64,000 bases of DNA. Source: Myxococcota bacterium (GTDB taxonomy: Bacteria; Myxococcota_A; UBA9160; JAFDDA01). Below are positions 15,370 through 63,583 of the stretch, piece by piece. The stretch lies in assembly GCA_965228475.1 (NCBI GenBank), contig OZ245817.1, positions 4,398,264 through 4,462,263 of the forward strand. Reading direction: 5' to 3'. Position 1 is the stretch's first letter. Every line of letters starts with the position of its first letter. The position numbers and the translations under genes are program-made. The notes under the pieces were generated by a model. It was not told where the DNA came from and made no database searches. It was given only the letters and a program-made list of their open reading frames with translations.

Positions 15370-16811
15370 CCCAGCCCCTGGATCTCGACGCCACCGCCCA
15401 GGCGGAACTCGTCCGCAGCGGTGAAGTGAAGCCCCAGGAGCTGGTGGATGCCGCCATCGAGCGCGCGGAGCGCCTCGACGAGGATCTCAACGCCGTGATC
15501 CTGCCGCGCTACGAGGAAGCGCGCGGCACGGCGGCGGGCGAGCTTCCGGACGGCCCCTTTCGCGGCGTCCCGTTCCTGCTGAAGGATCTCGGTGCGAACT
15601 TCGCCGGCTGGCCCAACCACAACGGGATGCAGGCGCTGAAGGACGCCGGCTGGACGACGCCCGTCGATTCCGTGCTGGCCGCGCGCTTCCGGGAGGCCGG
15701 CTTCGTGACGCTCGGGCGCACCAACTCGCCGGAGCTCGGGCTCGCACCGATCACCGAGCCGAGCGCCTACGGCCCGGCGCGAAACCCCTGGGACCTCGAT
15801 CACTCGCCGGGCGGCTCGAGCGGTGGCTCCTCGGCGGCGGTGGCCGCGGGAATCGTCGCGGTCGCGCACTCGAGCGACGGCGGAGGTTCGATCCGCATCC
15901 CGGCAGCGCATGCGGGCCTCGTCGGCCTGAAGCCCTCGCGCGGGCGCAACTCCTTCGGCCCGGAAGTGGGCGAGCGCTGGTTCGGCTGCTCCTGCGAGGG
16001 TGTCGTCTCGCGCACGGTGCGCGACACCGCGGCCGTGCTCGACGCCACCCACGGCCCGGCCGCGGGCGACCCCTACGGCTGCCCGCCCCCGGCTCGCTCC
16101 TATCGAGAAGAAGTCGGGGCGGCCCCCGGCCCGCTGCGCATCGGCCTGCTCGATCACGGCCCGCGCGGGGTCGACATCCACGAAGACAACGCCATCGCCG
16201 TGCGCAACGCCGCGCGCGCGCTCGAGGGCCTCGGGCACACCGTCGAGCCCTCCCATCCGAGCGTGCTCGACGATCAGGAGATCGTGCTCTCCTTCGTGAA
16301 GGTCGTGATGGCCTCGTGTGCGGCGGCCCTCGATTCCTGGGGCCAGAAGATCGGCCGTGCGATCGAGGAGAAGGACGTCGAGCCCATGACCTGGGCGATC
16401 GCCTCGCGCGGCCGCGACATCAGCGCGCCGGACCTGGCCGCCGCCGTCTCGTTCATGCACGCCGCCGGCCGGAACACCGGCGCCTGGCACGAGAGCGGCT
16501 ACGACCTGCTGCTCACGCCCACGTGCGGCCAGCCGCCGCCGCAGATCGGAGAGCTCGTCTCGCCGCCGGAGGAGCCGCTGCAGGGTTACATCCGCTCGGG
16601 GCCCTACGGCATGTTCACGTCGCCGTTCAACATGACGGGCCAGCCCGCCATCAGCCTTCCGCTGCACTGGAACGACGCCGGGCTTCCGATCGGCGTGCAG
16701 CTCGTCGCGCCGTATGCGGGGGAGGACCGGCTCCTTCGCGTCGCCGCGCAGCTGGAACAGGCCCTCCCCTGGGCCGACCGTCGGCCGACGGTCAACGCAT
16801 TCGGGACCTGA
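15366..16811 (+). CDS. Amidase (amidase-signature family)
   Basis: ATGA overlap with the ligase gene. [14 protein letters not shown] signature and [12 protein letters not shown]. Confidence 0.9.
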
Positions 16812-16849
16812 ACCCTGGGAGGTTGCAGGTCCACTCCTCCGAGAAGCGA

Positions 16850-16892
16850 CCGGCGGGGGAAAGGGTTGGACCCGCCGGCCGCTCTCGGCCGG
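16850..16892. terminator. Two adjacent GC-rich hairpins between convergent genes (possible bidirectional terminator)
   Basis: CCGGCGGG-N13-CCCGCCGG overlapping CCGGCCG-CTCT-CGGCCGG. No clear U-tract. Confidence 0.35.
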
Positions 16893-16896
16893 AGCG

Positions 16897-17487
16897 CTAG
16901 CGACGCCCCCGGCGCCAGATTCCCACCAGGGCACCGGCAACCAGCAGGGCGGCACTGGGCTCGGGCACGCTTGCGCCGCCATAGGTCCCGTCACCCCCAC
17001 CCACGGTGTAGCTGGCGTTGAGCCCGAAGTTGAAGTGCTCACCGAGGCTGATGAGTCCCGTGGGCCCGAAATCGAAGATCTCGTTGAACCCCATGCCGAT
17101 GCCATAGTGGACTTGATCGAACCCGTGCGAGAAGCTCCCGCTGGGGTTGAGCCCCGGCGGGGTGCCTCCCAGGTGGTAGACACCGGCGAAGCTGTGGAGG
17201 TATCCGTCTTCGAAGACGACGGTGCCCTCGTAGGTGAACGGACCATCGCCTGCGTTGGGCTCCTCCCGGAACGTCACGTTGAGGTCCCAACCCCAGACGC
17301 AACCCCCATAGGCGCAGGAATCGAAGGTCACTTCGCTCGCGGCGCTTGACTCGAGGATGAAGAGCGCGTTGTAGCCGACCTCCGCCTCGTTCGAGTAGAC
17401 GACGGTCAGGCTCACGGCCGAGGCCGGGGCTCCGGAGAACAACATGGCCAGGCCCAGGGCCAAGCCGGCAAGGAATCGAACAGACAT
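16897..17487 (-). CDS. PEP-CTERM sorting-domain secreted protein
   Basis: Signal peptide. C-terminal VPEPSAALLVAGALVGIWRRGRR (PEP motif, TM helix, Arg cluster). ATG behind AAGGAGG. Confidence 0.8.
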   Translation of the reverse strand: MSVRFLAGLALGLAMLFSGAPASAVSLTVVYSNEAEVGYNALFILESSAASEVTFDSCAYGGCVWGWDLNVTFREEPNAGDGPFTYEGTVVFEDGYLHSFAGVYHLGGTPPGLNPSGSFSHGFDQVHYGIGMGFNEIFDFGPTGLISLGEHFNFGLNASYTVGGGDGTYGGASVPEPSAALLVAGALVGIWRRGRR

Positions 17488-17564
17488 GAACAACAACACC
17501 TCCTTGCCCGCCGATGCGTCTAAACAGTCGAAAGGGCAATTTTAATTATACCGAGTGAACTATT
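17488..17564 (-). promoter_or_regulatory. Conserved AT-rich leader, paralogous to 19275..19345
   Basis: About 85% identity over about 52 nt with the other leader (AATAGTTCACTCGGTATAATTAAAATTGCCCTTTCG vs AATATTCCGATCGGTATATTTAAAATTGTCCTTTCG), plus an identical GGGCAAGGAGGTG at the RBS. Confidence 0.6.
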
Positions 17565-17580
17565 TGCAACCGACGTGCCA
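17565..17580 (-). promoter_or_regulatory. Sigma-54 (-24/-12) promoter
   Basis: Minus strand reads TGGCACGTCGGTTGCA, matching TGGCAC-N5-TTGCA exactly. It lies 78 nt upstream of the ATG. Confidence 0.75.
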
Positions 17581-17668
17581 TCTCGCCCCGTCGCAGGGTC
17601 CGACTCTCAAGCTGCCGGAAACAGGAAGGTTTTCACCTCGACTCGACCGCGACCTCCAGATCGCATTG

Positions 17669-17682
17669 GGAACGACGGTTCC
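17669..17682. promoter_or_regulatory. Candidate enhancer (UAS) palindrome, proximal
   Basis: GGAACGACGGTTCC (GGAAC-N4-GTTCC), about 110 nt upstream of the -12 element. Confidence 0.55.
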
Positions 17683-17699
17683 TCTCTAGCCACCAGAGA

Positions 17700-17713
17700 G
17701 GAAAAATTGTTCC
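17700..17713. promoter_or_regulatory. Candidate enhancer (UAS) palindrome, distal
   Basis: GGAAAAATTGTTCC, 31 bp centre-to-centre from the proximal site. Confidence 0.5.
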
Positions 17714-17744
17714 GTCGGTCTATTCGCATGGGGACGCCTTTCCC

Positions 17745-18707
17745 TTACGGGTGATGCGTCAGCTCAGGATCGATGCGGATGACACAGGGCCGTCCGAAAT
17801 CGTCGTCCCGGATCTCGAAACGCCACTCGGGCGCCATCCAGATGATCTGGGCCCAGGGCAGCTGGGCCTCGTAGATCGCCTGGACCGAGATGTACTCGGT
17901 GAGCTCCGGGCATCGATCGTCGAGGATCGTGATGTCGACGGTGGTCGTTTGCTCGTGGGCAGGAAACGTGAAGGGCAACAGCTCCGGATAGGTCGTTACC
18001 GGCCCATCGAAGTCTTCCCCCGCCTTCGCGGTCGAGCCGAAGGCGATCCAGAAGTCCAGAACCGGGATGGCGAAACGCCCAGAGTGCATGGCGTAGTAGT
18101 CCGTCACCGGTTCGTCGACCTTGAACATCTGCGAGAAGGTGAGGGTCTCGGTCCGCGTGGGCGACTCGTCGAAGGGCGCGTTCTCCGCGGTGACGTCGAT
18201 CAACGGAGGCCAGGCCGTGAACTGTGCACCCTGGATACAGATCGTTCCGTTCTGTTCCATCTGCGCCCACAGCGTATGGAGGCCGGGGTTGAGCGCGTAG
18301 CCCGGGGGCTCGTCGTCGAAGTCCGACGTGATCACGCTGATGAAGGCGTACTGATCGGCGGTCTTCACCTGCTCGACGCCGCCGGTGGTGTTCCCGTCCA
18401 GCCACAGCGTGACGAAGGGGCCGAGCGCCGCGTTCGGAAGAGTCCAGCTCAGCTCGAGGTTGCCCGACCCGTTGTGGTAGAGCGGCCATTCCGTGCCGAA
18501 TGAGCCTGAGGTGACGAGGAACGGTTGGCAGCCCGCCCCTTGAACGGCGCCGATCGAAGGCGGCTCCGGTGTTGCCGTCGGGCTGAGCGGGGATCCGCTG
18601 GGCTCGACCGGAACGACCCCGGAGAGCGAGGCAACGGCAGGGAGAGCGAGAAAGAACGTCACCGAAGCCAGCAGTGCGGTGCGTTGGACGAGAGTTCCGA
18701 ATTTCAT
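17745..18707 (-). CDS. Secreted protein with C-terminal Calx-beta-like domain
   Basis: ATG behind AAGGAAAC. Signal peptide. Calx-beta pattern GSTAKAGEDFDGPVTTYPELLPFTFPAHEQTTTVDITILDDRCPELTEYISV. Confidence 0.7.
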   Translation of the reverse strand: MKFGTLVQRTALLASVTFFLALPAVASLSGVVPVEPSGSPLSPTATPEPPSIGAVQGAGCQPFLVTSGSFGTEWPLYHNGSGNLELSWTLPNAALGPFVTLWLDGNTTGGVEQVKTADQYAFISVITSDFDDEPPGYALNPGLHTLWAQMEQNGTICIQGAQFTAWPPLIDVTAENAPFDESPTRTETLTFSQMFKVDEPVTDYYAMHSGRFAIPVLDFWIAFGSTAKAGEDFDGPVTTYPELLPFTFPAHEQTTTVDITILDDRCPELTEYISVQAIYEAQLPWAQIIWMAPEWRFEIRDDDFGRPCVIRIDPELTHHP

Positions 18708-18782
18708 GGTGGGTTTCCTTGGTCGAGGGCCGGCCTGCGGGTGGGCCACGCCCGTCGAACGGGCCCACCCCTCCAGGCGAGT

Positions 18783-19274
18783 TCAGGGCTGTCGAGAGCC
18801 GAGCGGCGGGCGGCGAGCGCCGGCCAGGGCGACCACGACGAGCAGGGCAAGGGCGGGCTCGGGCACACCGACGTGTCTTCCACTGAAGATGAAATCGCCG
18901 GACGGCGAGCCCCCGTCATGGACCGCCGAGTAGACGTCCATCCCGTTGCCGTGGGGGACGGTGCCGCTGAGCGACGTGCCGGTGGTTCCGGCGAAGAGCC
19001 AGGTCTCACCGTCCTCGTGGGTACTTCTCCCTGACCAGGCGAGCACACCTCCGGCTTCGCTGAAGAGGATGCTCACGTCCCAGAAACAATTCCCGGCGAC
19101 GCAGGAGTTGAAGGCGACGTCCTGGCCGCCGTCGAGGACGACTTCCAGACGCAGGCCGTAGCTCTCGGCGCTGTTGTCCTCGAACTCCACGTTGATGGTC
19201 ACCGCCGACGCAGGGCCGGCGGCCAGAATCAGAGCCAACCCGAGGACCGGCCAGGCAAAGGACCGAGCAGACAT
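18783..19274 (-). CDS. PEP-CTERM sorting-domain secreted protein (paralog of 16897..17487)
   Basis: ATG 7 nt after AAGGAGG. C-terminal VPEPALALLVVVALAGARRPP. Shares FNSCVAGNCFW / FDSCAYGGCVW with the paralog. Confidence 0.8.
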   Translation of the reverse strand: MSARSFAWPVLGLALILAAGPASAVTINVEFEDNSAESYGLRLEVVLDGGQDVAFNSCVAGNCFWDVSILFSEAGGVLAWSGRSTHEDGETWLFAGTTGTSLSGTVPHGNGMDVYSAVHDGGSPSGDFIFSGRHVGVPEPALALLVVVALAGARRPPLGSRQP

Positions 19275-19345
19275 GAGCACACCTCCTTGCCCTTTCGAGT
19301 CAATAAAACCGAAAGGACAATTTTAAATATACCGATCGGAATATT
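19275..19345 (-). promoter_or_regulatory. Conserved AT-rich leader with an SD-proximal hairpin
   Basis: See 17488..17564. Hairpin TGTCCTTTCG-N11-CGAAAGGGCA lies immediately 5' of AAGGAGG. Confidence 0.6.
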
Positions 19346-19361
19346 TGCAACGGGCGTGCCA
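19346..19361 (-). promoter_or_regulatory. Sigma-54 (-24/-12) promoter
   Basis: Minus strand reads TGGCACGCCCGTTGCA, 72 nt upstream of the ATG. Confidence 0.75.
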
Positions 19362-19451
19362 TCCGGGGCAGCGCACGGACTGCCGGGCGCAAGCCTTCGC
19401 CGGCGAAGGGATTTCCGAATGGCTGAGGAACGGAGCGAGCCCGGGGCGTTG

Positions 19452-19465
19452 GGAACGCCGGTTCC
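19452..19465. promoter_or_regulatory. Candidate enhancer (UAS) palindrome, proximal
   Basis: GGAACGCCGGTTCC. The flanks TTGGGAACGNCGGTTCC are shared with 17665..17682. Confidence 0.55.
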
Positions 19466-19482
19466 GTCCGAGCCGCAAAATG

Positions 19483-19496
19483 GGAAAAACGTTTCC
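19483..19496. promoter_or_regulatory. Candidate enhancer (UAS) palindrome, distal
   Basis: GGAAAAACGTTTCC, 31 bp centre-to-centre from the proximal site. Confidence 0.5.
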
Positions 19497-19570
19497 CACG
19501 AGACGGATCATCGCCTCGACTCGCGGCGGTCGGCCAGGGGCTGGGATCGCCCTGAAAAGCCGGTCTGAGC

Positions 19571-20227
19571 CTACTTGCGGCGGTCCGAACTCGGCGGAGG
19601 CTCGCCGGACTCGAGCTCGGCGGCGTCTCGCTGGGCCTGCTCGACGATGGCCCGGACCGCGAACTGCGTCATCTCGCGGTAGATCTCCGGCGCGCGGCGG
19701 GTCCCCAGCCAGAGGGCCTCGGCTCCGTGGCCCAGCGCCGTGATCGCCTCGGCGGCCGGACGGCCGACCTCCTCAGGCAGGCCCAGGAACTCCTGGATGA
19801 TGTTCACCCGGTGCTCGATGGAGAGCTTCGCCACGACAGCATGGCCGTCGTTGACCATGGCGCTGGCCATCAGCTGCTGCATCGCGCTGGCGAAGGTTCG
19901 CAGCTCGGGCCGGAAGTGCAGAGCCAGCTGAGCGTCCAGCCGTTCGCTCCAGTCGCCGGGGGTCTGAGTGAGGATTCCGGTGAAGGCCTGGTGGGCTCGA
20001 GCGGCGATGGCTTGGAAGAGCCCCTCGCGCGAGCCGAAGTGGTGGAGGACCGAGGTCTTGCTGGTGTCCGCCTCGCGCGCGATGTCGGCCAAGGAGATGG
20101 CCATTCCCTGCTCGCCGATCAGACGGATCGTCGCGAGGAGGATCGCCTCCTTGGACTCCTCTCCCGCGCGCCCCTTCGGTCGCCCGGCCTTGCGGGCGGG
20201 CTTCGAAGGCGGGGATTCCGGAGCCAT
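19571..20227 (-). CDS. TetR-family transcriptional regulator
   Basis: HTH region ILLATIRLIGEQGMAISLADIAREADTSKTSVLHHFGSREGL. Confidence 0.85.
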   Translation of the reverse strand: MAPESPPSKPARKAGRPKGRAGEESKEAILLATIRLIGEQGMAISLADIAREADTSKTSVLHHFGSREGLFQAIAARAHQAFTGILTQTPGDWSERLDAQLALHFRPELRTFASAMQQLMASAMVNDGHAVVAKLSIEHRVNIIQEFLGLPEEVGRPAAEAITALGHGAEALWLGTRRAPEIYREMTQFAVRAIVEQAQRDAAELESGEPPPSSDRRK

Positions 20228-39092: not shown

Positions 39093-39149
39093 CCCCAAGG
39101 GGACCTTCCGACCACGGGTCCCCGCTTCCGACCGCGAGTCGCCGGGATG

Positions 39150-39163
39150 GGAAAGGGTTTTCC
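39150..39163. promoter_or_regulatory. Candidate UAS palindrome of the same type as at 17700 and 19483
   Basis: GGAAAGGGTTTTCC, about 140 nt upstream of the -12 element at 39294. Confidence 0.4.
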
Positions 39164-39280
39164 CTTCGCGCGCACCCAGTTTTCCCTCCCGGCCAAGAGT
39201 CCACATCCGGGAAACCCGCCAAGGTCCTGATTTCCTTTCATTTTCACGCGCCTGGCCGCGGTGGGGCGGCGAGCCCCAGT

Positions 39281-39296
39281 TGGCTCGAAACTTGCT
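39281..39296 (+). promoter_or_regulatory. Sigma-54 (-24/-12) promoter
   Basis: TGGCTCGAAACTTGCT has GG and GC at the correct 10-nt spacing. It lies 40-50 nt upstream of the candidate ATGs. Confidence 0.55.
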
Positions 39297-39336: not shown

Positions 39337-40080
39337 ATGCGACCCATGCGATTCCGCGCCCTCCCGATCCTCGCCACTGCCCTGCTCGTCGCCGGCCCGG
39401 CCTCGGCCCTCACGAGCTACGGGGACTTCAGCGGCGCCGACCTGGACTTCATCGACGTGAACGAGACGTCCCTGTTCGGCGACCCGGAGCCCTTGTTCGG
39501 CGCGCCGACCACGGCCGGGAACTCGCTCTTGTTCTTCCCGACGACCTTCACGGCCACCAGCGCTGGAGGCGGCGTCGACGGCACGGGCTCCCTTCTGAAC
39601 CTCACCCTCGAGGCCACGGGCGGGAACACGCTCACGACCTTCTCGATCACCGAGTTCGGTGACACCTCGCTCTTCGGCGCGGGGACGGCGGCCACCGGAA
39701 GCTTCATCGGCCTCTCCGGCTTCCTGACCGTCACGGAGGATCTGAGCGGATCCATCACGCCCGTCGTGATTCCCTTTACCGGCGTCGTGACGCCGACGAC
39801 CGTGCCCGCTGGCACCTTCACGCTGCCGACCAACCCGGGCGTGACCCTCTGGACGGCGAGCGTGGTCATCGACATCACGAGCTACGTGCCGGACGCGACC
39901 GTCGCCGAGCTTCAGCTCAACAACGTGCTCAACGCTGCGAGCGAAGCCGGCACGAGCGCCCTGATCCAGAAGAAGGTCGTGAGCGGCCCGTCGGTCATTA
40001 TCACGGTGCCCGAGCCGGCCACCCTCGCGGTGATCGCCATCGGCCTCCTGGGCGCGCTCGGCCTTCGCCGCCGCGCCTAG
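39337..40080 (+). CDS. PEP-CTERM sorting-domain secreted protein
   Basis: Start at ATG 39337 or 39346, since the track start 39280 lies inside the promoter. Signal peptide. C-terminal VPEPATLAVIAIGLLGALGLRRRA. Confidence 0.8.
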   Translation: MRPMRFRALPILATALLVAGPASALTSYGDFSGADLDFIDVNETSLFGDPEPLFGAPTTAGNSLLFFPTTFTATSAGGGVDGTGSLLNLTLEATGGNTLTTFSITEFGDTSLFGAGTAATGSFIGLSGFLTVTEDLSGSITPVVIPFTGVVTPTTVPAGTFTLPTNPGVTLWTASVVIDITSYVPDATVAELQLNNVLNAASEAGTSALIQKKVVSGPSVIITVPEPATLAVIAIGLLGALGLRRRA

Positions 40081-61969: not shown

Positions 61970-62602
61970 ATGCCCCGCCCGCTTGCTCACTGCCTCGCCC
62001 TGCTGCCGCTGCTGCTCGCGCCCTCCGCGCAGGCGGCCAGCATCCAGATCCTGACCCAGCTCACGAGCAACCCGGCCTTCATCCTCGGGCCCCAGGCGGG
62101 GATCTTCACGCCGGGCGAGGACGTGCTGATCGAGATCACCTTCGACGAGATGGCGGTCGACGGAAATCCCTCGATGGGGATCGGCACCTTCCTCTCCGCG
62201 GTGAGCCAGCTCGACGTGAGCTTCCAGACGTCGGGGCTCTCCTTCCAGTTCGGCAACCCGCTGTCGTCGATCGGGACGGCCGACGACATGCCGTCGGGCA
62301 CGGACTCCGTCGCCTTCAGCTCCTCCAGCCGAATCGGGGGCAGCATGCCGGGCGGCGTGCCGGCCTCGATCTCGGTACTCCTCGTCCAGATGGGCGGCGC
62401 CGGTGACCTGGTCGTGAACGACCGCCCGGCGACGGGGCCCGTCGCCTTCACGAGTGCCACCTTCGACCTCAACACCACCGGCATCGGCGCAACGAACATG
62501 CTGCTCGAAGGCGGCACGGTCGTGGTCCCCGAGCCGGGCAGCGCCGGCCTCCTCTTGCTGGCTGGCGTCGCGGGCGCGGCGATCCGCTTCCGACGCCGCT
62601 AG
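61970..62602 (+). CDS. PEP-CTERM sorting-domain secreted protein (family member 1 of 3)
   Basis: ATG 7 nt after AGGAGG. Signal peptide. C-terminal VPEPGSAGLLLLAGVAGAAIRFRRR. Confidence 0.8.
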   Translation: MPRPLAHCLALLPLLLAPSAQAASIQILTQLTSNPAFILGPQAGIFTPGEDVLIEITFDEMAVDGNPSMGIGTFLSAVSQLDVSFQTSGLSFQFGNPLSSIGTADDMPSGTDSVAFSSSSRIGGSMPGGVPASISVLLVQMGGAGDLVVNDRPATGPVAFTSATFDLNTTGIGATNMLLEGGTVVVPEPGSAGLLLLAGVAGAAIRFRRR

Positions 62603-62844
62603 CCGCGCTCGGTGGGTTCCGCGGGGCCACCTTCAGCGGGCTCTGCGTCCTCGCCGCGCTTGCGCATCCGGCCGATCAGCAGCGCCACGAGCGCCAGCAG
62701 CGCTTCGTCCACGAACGGCAACGGGTCCGGAACGAAGACGTTCACCGCGGCCAGGGCGAGCACCAGCCCGAACAGCACGGGGAAGCGCCGGCGCGACGCC
62801 CAGCGGACGAGCGGTGCGAGGAAGGCGGTTCGGGCCAGAGCCAT
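62599..62844 (-). CDS. Small membrane protein (81 aa), possibly DUF1232-like
   Basis: High GC3. VNVFVPDPLPFVDEALLALVALLIG. Located between two + strand paralogs. Confidence 0.45.
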   Translation of the reverse strand: MALARTAFLAPLVRWASRRRFPVLFGLVLALAAVNVFVPDPLPFVDEALLALVALLIGRMRKRGEDAEPAEGGPAEPTERG

Positions 62845-62902
62845 CTCCCGACGTTGCCACTTTCGACCCCGGGTCACCACCAAGCTGGGTGGAGGACCCG
62901 AA

Positions 62903-63583
62903 GTGAAGCCCCGATCTGCCCCGCTCGCCCTGGCCCTCGCTCTCACCTTCGCGCTCGCGAAGCCCAGCGCGGCCGCCATCATCCAGGTCGAGATCGCGTC
63001 GACCCTGAGCCAGATCTTCTCCACCGACCACACCCTGCCCATGATGGTGGGGGACGAGATCGTCGTCCGCTTCCAGCTCGACGATGCGGTGCCGGACCTG
63101 AACCCCGTCGCGGGTTCGGGCCAGTTCCAGAACGCGATCGTCCAGGCCTCGGTGGAGTTTCCGGAGCAGGGCCTCTTCTTCGACTTCCCGCTCGGCAGCT
63201 TCAGCGTGCTCACGACCCTCGACAACCAGCCGAGCGGGCCCATCACCACCGACGCCTTCGCCTTCAACTCCCTCGGAGACTCGGTCGGCGGGGACATGCT
63301 GGACGGGGATACCCCGAACTCGATGATCTTCGGCTTCGCCCAGGCTCTCTTCGGCAGCGACCCGACCCTGGTCGTGAACGATCGCCTGAACCCGCCCTTC
63401 AGCTTCGACGGCCTCGGCGCCTCCCAGGTCACGCTGGTCGGGCCGATCGGCACGACGGGCGCGAACTTCGTCGACACCTTCGGCCTGAACGCCGGAAGCG
63501 CCGTCGTGGTGCCGGTGCCCGAGCCGGCGCTGGGCGCCCTGGCCCTGGTTTCGATCTTCGGCCTCGTCCGCCGCCGCACCTGA
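62903..63583 (+). CDS. PEP-CTERM sorting-domain secreted protein (family member 2 of 3)
   Basis: GTG behind GGAGGACCCGAA, the same RBS context as member 1. C-terminal VPVPEPALGALALVSIFGLVRRRT. Confidence 0.8.
   Translation: MKPRSAPLALALALTFALAKPSAAAIIQVEIASTLSQIFSTDHTLPMMVGDEIVVRFQLDDAVPDLNPVAGSGQFQNAIVQASVEFPEQGLFFDFPLGSFSVLTTLDNQPSGPITTDAFAFNSLGDSVGGDMLDGDTPNSMIFGFAQALFGSDPTLVVNDRLNPPFSFDGLGASQVTLVGPIGTTGANFVDTFGLNAGSAVVVPVPEPALGALALVSIFGLVRRRT

Follow-up and report, generated by a model that had tools for sequence, protein, structure and literature searches.

NtrC-type activators have a REC-AAA+-Fis-HTH organization, and the regulator's own gene carries binding sites. At glnAp2, and at the enhancers of related bEBPs, the sites are dyad-symmetric, arranged in tandem and positioned ~100-150 bp upstream of the sigma-54 promoter. 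Among proteobacterial PEP-CTERM genes, 99 of 167 are preceded by a bipartite enhancer and a sigma-54 site, with 71 ± 38 nt between the latter and the start codon (Haft et al., 2006; PMC1569441). According to the textual description of this enhancer, motif 1 is a 17-nt element that ends in TTTACA and precedes the sigma-54 motif by 63 ± 11 nt (PMC1569441). The site was reported in Proteobacteria only, and other motifs and regulators were anticipated explicitly elsewhere (PMC1569441). In 2023, transcription of pepA in the betaproteobacterium Aquincola tertiaricarbonis, which possesses genuine PrsK and PrsR, was found to be rpoN1-dependent, with a mapped start site and a TGGCAC-type -24 element (PMC9850573). 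Regulation of PEP-CTERM genes by sigma-54 thus was on record from 2006 onward and was tested in 2023, which refutes the assertion in a first-pass annotation of the present DNA that cis-elements at these genes are poorly documented. The locus described here is a lineage-specific variant with a different activator site and a different likely activator.

The window is a 64,000-nt stretch of contig OZ245817.1 from a Myxococcota bacterium with a 5.0-Mb genome. It includes two genes, A and B, that specify paralogous proteins (31% identity over 129 amino acids; E = 1e-14), each with a signal peptide and a C-terminus that, as judged by eye, consists of VPEP, a hydrophobic stretch and an Arg-rich tail. 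The first-pass annotation of the pair as PEP-CTERM paralogs is borne out. The genes and their upstream regions comprise the following features.

19482..19497, minus strand: unit A distal box GGGAAACGTTTTTCCC, perfect match to GGGAA-N6-TTCCC, center ~-154 from the predicted transcription start
19451..19466, minus strand: unit A proximal box CGGAACCGGCGTTCCC, one mismatch, center ~-123, 31 bp center-to-center from the distal box
19361..19346, minus strand: unit A -24/-12 element TGGCACGCCCGTTGCA, sigma-54 type, no mismatches, predicted transcription start ~19335
19275..19335, minus strand: unit A leader, with AT-rich block GGTATATTTAAAATTG (19333..19318), a hairpin and the SD sequence AAGGAGG (19288..19282)
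18783..19274, minus strand: gene A, 163-aa secreted protein with PEP-CTERM-like tail VGVPEPALALLVVVALAGARR...
17699..17714, minus strand: unit B distal box CGGAACAATTTTTCCT, two mismatches, center ~-153
17668..17683, minus strand: unit B proximal box AGGAACCGTCGTTCCC, one mismatch, center ~-122, 31 bp from the distal box
17580..17565, minus strand: unit B -24/-12 element TGGCACGTCGGTTGCA, sigma-54 type, no mismatches, predicted transcription start ~17554
17488..17554, minus strand: unit B leader, with AT-rich block GGTATAATTAAAATTG (17552..17537) and the SD sequence AAGGAGG (17505..17499)
16897..17487, minus strand: gene B, 196-aa secreted PEP-CTERM protein, ...SVPEPSAALLVAGALVGIWRRGRR
17745..18707, minus strand: 320-aa secreted protein of unknown family that lacks a PEP-CTERM tail, between units A and B
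19571..20227, minus strand: gene for a TetR-family regulator, immediately upstream of unit A, at most a putative member of the system

Against the Pfam PEP-CTERM model (PF07589/TIGR02595 class; cut-off 20.7), gene B scored 19.8 bits when its protein was searched and 23.7 bits in six-frame translation, and gene A had no match in Pfam or NCBIfam so that its membership derives from the motif. Gene A and the gene for the 320-aa protein, which have a 9-bp GC hairpin between them at 18770..18739, may form one transcription unit.

Both -24/-12 elements exhibit GG and GC dinucleotides exactly 10 bp apart in a TGGCAC-N5-TTGCW context. The pattern TGGCAC-N5-TTGCA occurs twice in the window, at units A and B only, compared to 0.00 expected from 100 shuffles, and genome-wide there are seven matches to it and none to its reverse; for the shorter TGGCAC-N5-TTGC, the corresponding counts are 27 and seven. 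The elements are placed 72 nt (unit A; ATG at 19274) and 78 nt (unit B; ATG at 17487) from start codons that each are preceded by an AAGGAGG sequence, distances which resemble the ~71 nt in the system of Haft et al. Thus, both the pair of exact 16-mers on the minus strand and their distances to the ATGs were as described in the first-pass annotation. The predicted transcription starts were positioned by canonical sigma-54 geometry. The genome encodes RpoN (TIGR02395, 459 bits; cut-off 277), whose absence would have spoken against sigma-54 control, and ~21 EBPs with a Sigma54_activat domain. The window lacks any EBP gene, as the earlier reading had it. Two EpsH-family exosortases (186 and 170 bits) are nearest to XrtA, yet are below the XrtA cut-off.

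Units A and B each possess two 16-bp GGGAA-N6-TTCCC palindromes, 31 bp apart, with centers at roughly -122 and -153 relative to the predicted start, within the range of ~80-200 bp upstream for activator sequences of sigma-54 promoters. These boxes were overlooked in the first-pass annotation, as was a third unit in the same window:

39149..39164, plus strand: unit C box GGGAAAGGGTTTTCCC, perfect GGGAA-N6-TTCCC, third regulon member in the window
39281..39296, plus strand: unit C element TGGCTCGAAACTTGCT, sigma-54-like, 132 nt beyond the start of the box, predicted transcription start ~39308
39337..40080, plus strand: unit C gene, 247-aa PEP-CTERM protein (Pfam, 32.8 bits)

Genome-wide, 12 of 85 sigma-54-like sites have boxes 80-160 nt upstream compared to none of the 85 at the mirrored position 80-160 nt downstream, and 11 of these 12 units, including unit C, precede PEP-CTERM genes. 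Perfect copies of GGGAA-N6-TTCCC number 11 versus two for the reversed pattern. Seven perfect copies are intergenic, the distal box of unit A among them: four are located before sigma-54 promoters of PEP-CTERM genes and three before g885, an EBP gene considered below. The sigma-54-like motif, with up to one mismatch allowed, was detected at 11 of 73 PEP-CTERM genes and at 41 of 3674 others (odds ratio 15.7, p = 2e-9; antisense 0/73), the enrichment across PEP-CTERM genes on which the first-pass annotation had made its proposal depend. The region from -300 to +150 around predicted starts was scanned because longest-ORF starts conceal promoters inside over-extended ORFs. The box expression GAA-N3-5-TTTTCC was present upstream of 10/73 PEP-CTERM genes and 6/3674 others (odds ratio 97, p = 3e-14). 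These enrichment figures are approximate, since the 3747 genes were called with a custom GC3 procedure and the PEP-CTERM genes were compiled from both HMM and regex matches. Enrichment of exact 8-mers upstream of PEP-CTERM genes did not recover the enhancer, but instead the leader word GGGAAGGG; the box is recoverable only by gapped or degenerate searches.

The arrangement parallels the system of Haft et al. in that an activator site and a -24/-12 promoter precede PEP-CTERM genes that are mostly monocistronic and have long non-coding leaders. It similarly resembles Aquincola pepA in the TGGCAC-type -24 element of a PEP-CTERM gene, although in that case the start was mapped experimentally and the regulator set is different, whereas the present units were defined from sequence alone. 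In contrast to motif 1, as known from its text description, the box is a palindrome that usually is in tandem, the box begins 98-144 nt before the start of the -24 element across the units of the genome instead of ~63 nt, and TTTACA is absent from the spacers of both units A and B. The tandem dyads are reminiscent of NtrC sites at glnAp2, and the candidate regulator gene g885 likewise carries boxes, but the target genes and box sequence differ from those of NtrC, as presumably does the signal.

Among 40 related genomes, homologs of genes A and B were not found, except for one weak match to residues 112-196 of gene B. Promoters A and B consequently have no phylogenetic footprint, and support for these units is drawn from non-homologous genes of the same architecture. 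Box and sigma-54 units were detected in at least 16 of the 40 genomes, and those with a readable complete ORF (G002, G033, and G003) precede PEP-CTERM or other secreted proteins. As the search pattern was very strict (exact TTTTCC and TGGC-N7-TTGCW), absence of a unit from a relative is weak evidence. Five of 11 inspected pattern matches in relatives lacked boxes and were set aside as other sigma-54 promoters. Overall, there is good reason to regard the GGGAA-N6-TTCCC boxes as the probable enhancer of these promoters.

Candidates for the activator are two genes, located at 1.19 Mb of the genome in an exopolysaccharide locus of XrtA type:

1193179-1194609 of the genome: g885, NtrC-family response-regulator EBP, with three perfect boxes (genome 1192918-1192973) in its own promoter region
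1186762-1188204 of the genome: g881, paralogous response-regulator EBP, with g882, a cytoplasmic PAS histidine kinase, as its partner

The families TIGR03027, TIGR03007, and TIGR03015 represent the export, chain-length and ATPase components, respectively, of XrtA/PEP-CTERM exopolysaccharide systems, and g885 is the first gene of an operon with relatives of all three. Each candidate has the REC domain, sigma-54-interaction AAA+ domain and C-terminal Fis-type HTH, and aligns over its full length with the AtoC, NtrC, and PrsR models (370-445 bits), below every equivalog cut-off. Their recognition helices, SYKALLYK and SYKTLLQK, are near-identical. Location of an NtrC-type response regulator close to exosortase-associated exopolysaccharide genes is a further likeness to the system of Haft et al., whereas the cytoplasmic candidate kinase g882 is unlike PrsK which is a multi-pass membrane protein.

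It is unlikely, albeit with an appreciable share of the probability, that the boxes are functional but are bound by another of the ~21 EBPs or by a non-EBP factor which also regulates g885. The specificity of EBPs is not readable from sequence, and g885 has no clear sigma-54 promoter in this genome, nor a good -24/-12 element in this genus. The phylogenetic profile is noisy: g881 is present in 16/16 unit-bearing relatives and g885 in 12/16, the four exceptions being fragmented or incomplete assemblies. Against this alternative, each of the 23 g885 orthologs that could be aligned retains triple boxes directly upstream (62 boxes versus 5.5 expected), both candidates reside within the PEP-CTERM-type exopolysaccharide locus, and none of the seven relatives that lack both EBPs has a unit. 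On balance, the activator that binds the boxes appears not to be PrsR and is most likely g885 or g881.

The leaders of units A and B share a 26-nt AT-rich block within which TATAAT (17550..17545) and TATATT (19331..19326) are conserved, and this block is unique to the two units in the genome. A sigma-70 holoenzyme could be envisaged to transcribe the genes from these hexamers, the -24/-12 look-alikes being incidental or merely modulatory. However, a lenient scan revealed no sigma-70-type promoter at either unit, with no -35 element 16-18 nt from the hexamers, the AT-rich block is missing from the ten other box and sigma-54 units, and the sigma-54 motif and boxes are coupled statistically to PEP-CTERM genes. 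This explanation is very improbable. The leader of unit A is predicted to form a stable hairpin that extends to the SD sequence (-25 kcal/mol, z = -5.5). The fold of the unit B leader was not significant (z = 0.16), no conserved RNA element is claimed, and an Rfam search of positions 16700-19700 (E ≤ 1) produced no match. Overall, the presence of rpoN, the genome-wide enrichment, the shared activator box and the lack of a sigma-70 alternative strongly support the original proposal that sigma-54 promoters drive both PEP-CTERM paralogs, and the motifs of units A and B are very likely to be functional sigma-54 promoters.

A slightly smaller probability still attaches to the view that the promoter likeness is residual ancestry, devoid of function, from a local duplication. 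The paralogs are 1.8 kb apart and their upstream regions align at 77%. Nevertheless, conservation is block-wise, with 73% nucleotide identity in the boxes and 75% from the -24 element to the ATG, whereas spacer and coding sequence reach 55% and 56%, respectively. Moreover, the same architecture recurs in relatives and at ten other units of this genome whose genes have no evident sequence relation to A or B.

Least probable, and largely refuted, is the canonical proteobacterial system, whose PrsK/PrsR pair was invoked in the first-pass annotation and in which PrsK-phosphorylated PrsR would act at motif 1 ~63 nt upstream of the sigma-54 site: the overall logic and promoter-to-ATG distance are the same and the lineage once was placed in the Deltaproteobacteria, but the best EBP scored 418.5 bits against PrsR (TIGR02915; cut-off 502.6), g885 reached 400 bits with that model and more with those of AtoC and NtrC, the best PrsK match (TIGR02916) was 97.9 bits versus 300 and was limited to the kinase core at profile positions 458-679, the best single PrsT match (TIGR02917) was 144 bits versus 312, and the boxes diverge from motif 1, as described in the text, in both sequence and position. 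An 828-aa TPR ORF (genome 1207360-1209666) with four partial PrsT matches that sum to ~296 bits possibly is a divergent PrsT relative.

The favored explanation, to which a probability of ~0.75 is assigned, is that RpoN-dependent promoters direct production of secreted PEP-CTERM proteins under an NtrC-family EBP that acts at the boxes, as part of a regulon of at least 12 units. The RpoN-holoenzyme would occupy the promoter as a closed complex, and the EBP would bind as tandem dimers to the two boxes ~122 and ~153 bp upstream, which would be on the same face of the helix because they are 31 bp apart. Looping of the bound EBP would then permit remodeling of the closed complex by ATP hydrolysis and only at that point would transcription start. 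The supply of surface proteins thereby could be coupled to exopolysaccharide export through the locus that includes g885 and g881.

A more elaborate scheme for this order of uncultured, mostly marine Myxococcota is offered tentatively: a PrsR-independent regulon with a private 16-bp enhancer that mostly is repeated in tandem with helical phasing, a two-EBP cascade or feed-forward loop, and a second layer at genes A and B. The PAS kinase g882 would phosphorylate g881, which would switch on the PEP-CTERM genes as well as the g885 operon, that is, a second activator together with the exopolysaccharide export machinery. The additional layer at genes A and B would involve their unique AT-rich leader, which may be able to sequester the ribosome-binding site and which also might be an operator for the adjacent TetR regulator.

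PEP-CTERM/exosortase systems are widespread in bacteria of biofilms, flocs and sediments, and the only regulation described for them so far is that through the PrsK/PrsR box of Proteobacteria. The general principle that exosortase substrates are under sigma-54 control is not new. Instead, a large uncultured myxobacterial lineage gains a defined enhancer sequence, ~12 target promoters, two candidate activators and a candidate kinase.

The first-pass annotation had placed near-identical sigma-54 promoters ahead of two PEP-CTERM paralogs, gene A and gene B. Both motifs were present on the minus strand, and the distances from motif end to start codon of 78 nt for gene B (ATG at 17487) and 72 nt for gene A (ATG at 19274) were confirmed. 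The sequence AAGGAGG precedes the ATG in both cases. Each promoter region with its gene is termed unit A or unit B, and the elements of their upstream regions are:

19497..19482, minus strand, distal box of unit A, GGGAAACGTTTTTCCC, a version of GGGAA-N6-TTCCC
19466..19451, minus strand, proximal box of unit A, CGGAACCGGCGTTCCC, a version of GGGAA-N6-TTCCC
19361..19346, minus strand, sigma-54 element of unit A, sequence read TGGCACGCCCGTTGCA
17714..17699, minus strand, distal box of unit B, CGGAACAATTTTTCCT, a version of GGGAA-N6-TTCCC
17683..17668, minus strand, proximal box of unit B, AGGAACCGTCGTTCCC, a version of GGGAA-N6-TTCCC
17580..17565, minus strand, sigma-54 element of unit B, sequence read TGGCACGTCGGTTGCA

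The pattern TGGCAC-N5-TTGCA matched only twice in the 64-kb window (positions 4398264-4462263 in a genome assembled as one contig; 5.006 Mb, 70.5% G+C), compared with 0.00 matches expected from shuffles. Across the genome the pattern occurred at seven sites versus none for its reversal, and the shorter TGGCAC-N5-TTGC at 27 versus seven.

The initial reading of the upstream regions was correct for the -24/-12 element, but overlooked the two boxes at each promoter. Box pairs are spaced 31 bp centre to centre in both units. When the predicted +1 was set twelve nt 3' of the -12 C, as canonical geometry implies (about 17554 in unit B and 19335 in unit A), the box centres fell at about -122 and -153, which is within the usual distance range of bacterial enhancers. 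Alignment of the two upstream regions revealed 77% identity arranged in blocks. The boxes (73%) and the stretch from -24 to the ATG (75%) are better conserved at the nucleotide level than either the spacer (55%) or the coding sequence (56%), which speaks for selection acting on the regulatory blocks rather than for common ancestry alone.

The products of gene A (163 aa) and gene B (196 aa) each possess a signal peptide and a C-terminal end comprising VPEP, a hydrophobic stretch and an Arg-rich tail, and the two share 31% identity over 129 residues (E = 1e-14). Gene B is borderline for Pfam PEP-CTERM (cut-off 20.7; 19.8 bits for the protein and 23.7 bits in a six-frame scan) and gene A was assigned by motif only. 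Between them is a gene for a secreted protein of 320 aa that belongs to no known family. Two further features of the locus are:

18739-18770, minus strand, GC-rich 9-bp hairpin (GGGTGGGCC ... GGCCCACCC) lacking a T tract, in the interval separating gene A from the 320-aa gene
19571-20227, minus strand, TetR-family regulator gene just upstream of unit A

Possibly acting as a terminator or attenuator, the hairpin may determine whether the 320-aa gene is co-transcribed. A distance of 74 nt separates the end of the TetR-family gene from the distal box of unit A.

As an alternative, transcription from TATAAT and TATATT hexamers had been envisaged. The hexamers are real, and both belong to a 26-nt AT-rich block that spans about +3 to +28 relative to the predicted start sites, but a lenient scan of 16700-19700 detected no sigma-70-type promoter. 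The core of the block is:

17537-17552 and 19318-19333, minus strand, 16-nt AT-rich core GGTATAWTTAAAATTG in the leaders of units B and A, respectively

A search of the whole genome (70% G+C) found GGTATAWTTAAAATTG confined to these two promoters and not in the remaining regulon members. The unit A leader was predicted to fold into a stable hairpin (-25 kcal/mol, z = -5.5) in which the AT-rich block is base-paired to the ribosome-binding region, the unit B leader gave no significant fold (z = 0.16), and the region 16700-19700 had no match in Rfam at E <= 1. The TetR-family protein might exert a second layer of local control on both paralogs, for example via this block. Units A and B lack an 8-mer, GGGAAGGG, seen elsewhere. 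This word is enriched upstream of and around PEP-CTERM gene starts (16/73 versus 78/3674 genes) and is found in the leader of many other regulon members, typically 15-30 nt 3' of the -12 element.

The genome contains a single RpoN (459 bits; cut-off 277), as the sigma-54 reading demands, and a complete sigma-54-interaction domain was detected in ~21 proteins. There are two exosortases, both XrtA-like and below the XrtA cut-off, and at least 47 PEP-CTERM domains exceed the Pfam cut-off. For genome-wide comparisons, 73 PEP-CTERM genes (HMM and regex matches combined) were distinguished among 3747 genes from a GC3-based call. Sigma-54-like sites (GG and GC fixed, at most one other mismatch; -300 to +150 scanned) accompany 11/73 PEP-CTERM genes versus 41/3674 others (odds ratio 15.7, p = 2e-9), and 0/73 in the antisense control, showing that the motif is enriched at PEP-CTERM genes. 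The box regex GAA-N3-5-TTTTCC was upstream of 10/73 versus 6/3674 genes (odds ratio 97, p = 3e-14). Perfect GGGAA-N6-TTCCC palindromes number 11, seven of them intergenic, versus two for the reversed pattern. A box with at most one mismatch lies 80-160 nt upstream of 12 of 85 sigma-54-like sites and the same distance downstream of none. As 11 of these 12 units precede PEP-CTERM genes, the promoters of units A and B are members of a regulon. Unit C is a third member in the window:

39149-39164, plus strand, perfect box GGGAAAGGGTTTTCCC
39281-39296, plus strand, sigma-54 element TGGCTCGAAACTTGCT of the same unit
39337-40080, plus strand, PEP-CTERM protein of 247 aa downstream of TGGCTCGAAACTTGCT

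On this sequence evidence, units A and B very probably have functional sigma-54 promoters (probability about 0.85), probably with the boxes as their enhancers, an arrangement that is ordinary in principle. The sole unit without a PEP-CTERM gene, at 4722022-4723109 of the genome and outside the window, has tandem boxes and TGGCGCGCCGCTTGCA; its 266-aa product ends in GIECVVEGQLPY. Two more PEP-CTERM genes are situated at the window end (62525-63583, plus strand). These were not flagged in the box and sigma-54 coupling scan, and thus the regulon excludes some PEP-CTERM genes.

The PrsK/PrsR pair that had been invoked as the regulator was not found: the best enhancer-binding protein (EBP) in the genome scored 418 bits (PrsR cut-off 502.6), and the best kinase 98 bits (PrsK cut-off 300), with the match limited to the catalytic core. 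The best single TPR match to PrsT in the genome reached 144 bits versus 312. Four partial PrsT (TIGR02917) matches in an 828-aa TPR protein (genome 1207360-1209666, within the same exopolysaccharide locus as the candidates below) sum to ~296 bits, so this protein is possibly a diverged relative of PrsT. Of the seven perfect palindromes in intergenic DNA, three are in tandem (genome 1192918, 1192937 and 1192958), directly upstream of the following gene:

about 1193179-1194609 (genome), g885, NtrC-family response-regulator EBP

The gene wecB is divergent from g885. Located 3' of g885 are relatives of TIGR03027 (exopolysaccharide export protein; 168 bits, cut-off 180), TIGR03007 (chain-length determinant; 217 versus 279) and TIGR03015 (associated ATPase; 300 versus 324), which are XrtA/PEP-CTERM-system families. 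Another EBP, g881, shares 51% identity and a closely similar recognition helix with g885. It is encoded 5 kb away alongside g882, a cytoplasmic PAS histidine kinase. Either g885 or g881 is probably the activator of the units. In a plausible cascade, g882 would signal to g881, which in turn would act on the PEP-CTERM genes and the g885 operon.

Clear g885 orthologs (67-85% identity) were evident in ~25 of 40 related genomes; the named relatives are all MAGs, either of uncultured Myxococcota or "Deltaproteobacteria" or bearing labels that are evidently loose. Upstream regions were obtainable for 23 orthologs, and MAFFT alignment disclosed a conserved GGAA-N6-TTCC array at -165 to -265 in every one; these regions contain 62 boxes (at most two mismatches) versus 5.5 expected. 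A -24/-12-like element follows triple boxes in about nine orthologs (e.g., TGGCACGGAACTAGCA; loci among L025-L044), indicating that g885 is itself a box and sigma-54 target in relatives. The element is degenerate in this genome and its congener, which suggests that autoregulatory or cascade wiring has been altered in this genus. Among 16 relatives in which units were checked by eye or script, g881 was present in 16 and g885 in 12. The four without g885 comprise two highly fragmented assemblies, an assembly of 480 contigs and a single contig rated 68% complete, in the last of which the best match was a g882/g881-type pair without boxes. None of seven relatives lacking both EBPs possessed units.

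Cis-elements at PEP-CTERM genes had been described as poorly documented, which is wrong in light of earlier work. In Proteobacteria, PEP-CTERM genes are mostly monocistronic and have long upstream regions; a 17-nt motif 1 that ends in TTTACA, a spacer of 62.8 +/- 10.6 nt and a sigma-54 motif occur in this order at 99 of the 167 genes, with a mean of 71 nt between sigma-54 motif and start codon (Haft et al., 2006; PMC1569441). The phylogenetic profile of the site is that of PrsK, PrsR and PrsT; it was found in Proteobacteria only, with other motifs and regulators expected elsewhere (Haft et al., 2006). Moreover, transcription of Aquincola pepA is rpoN1-dependent and its start site maps behind a TGGCAC element (PMC9850573). 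In contrast to the system of Haft et al. (2006), the enhancer here is different in sequence and farther away (98-144 nt between the starts of the box and the -24 element), PrsK, PrsR and PrsT are absent, and the candidate sensor is different. As read from sequence, this is a known regulatory scheme that is new in its enhancer variant, with a well-defined putative enhancer and two candidate activators, which are testable targets.
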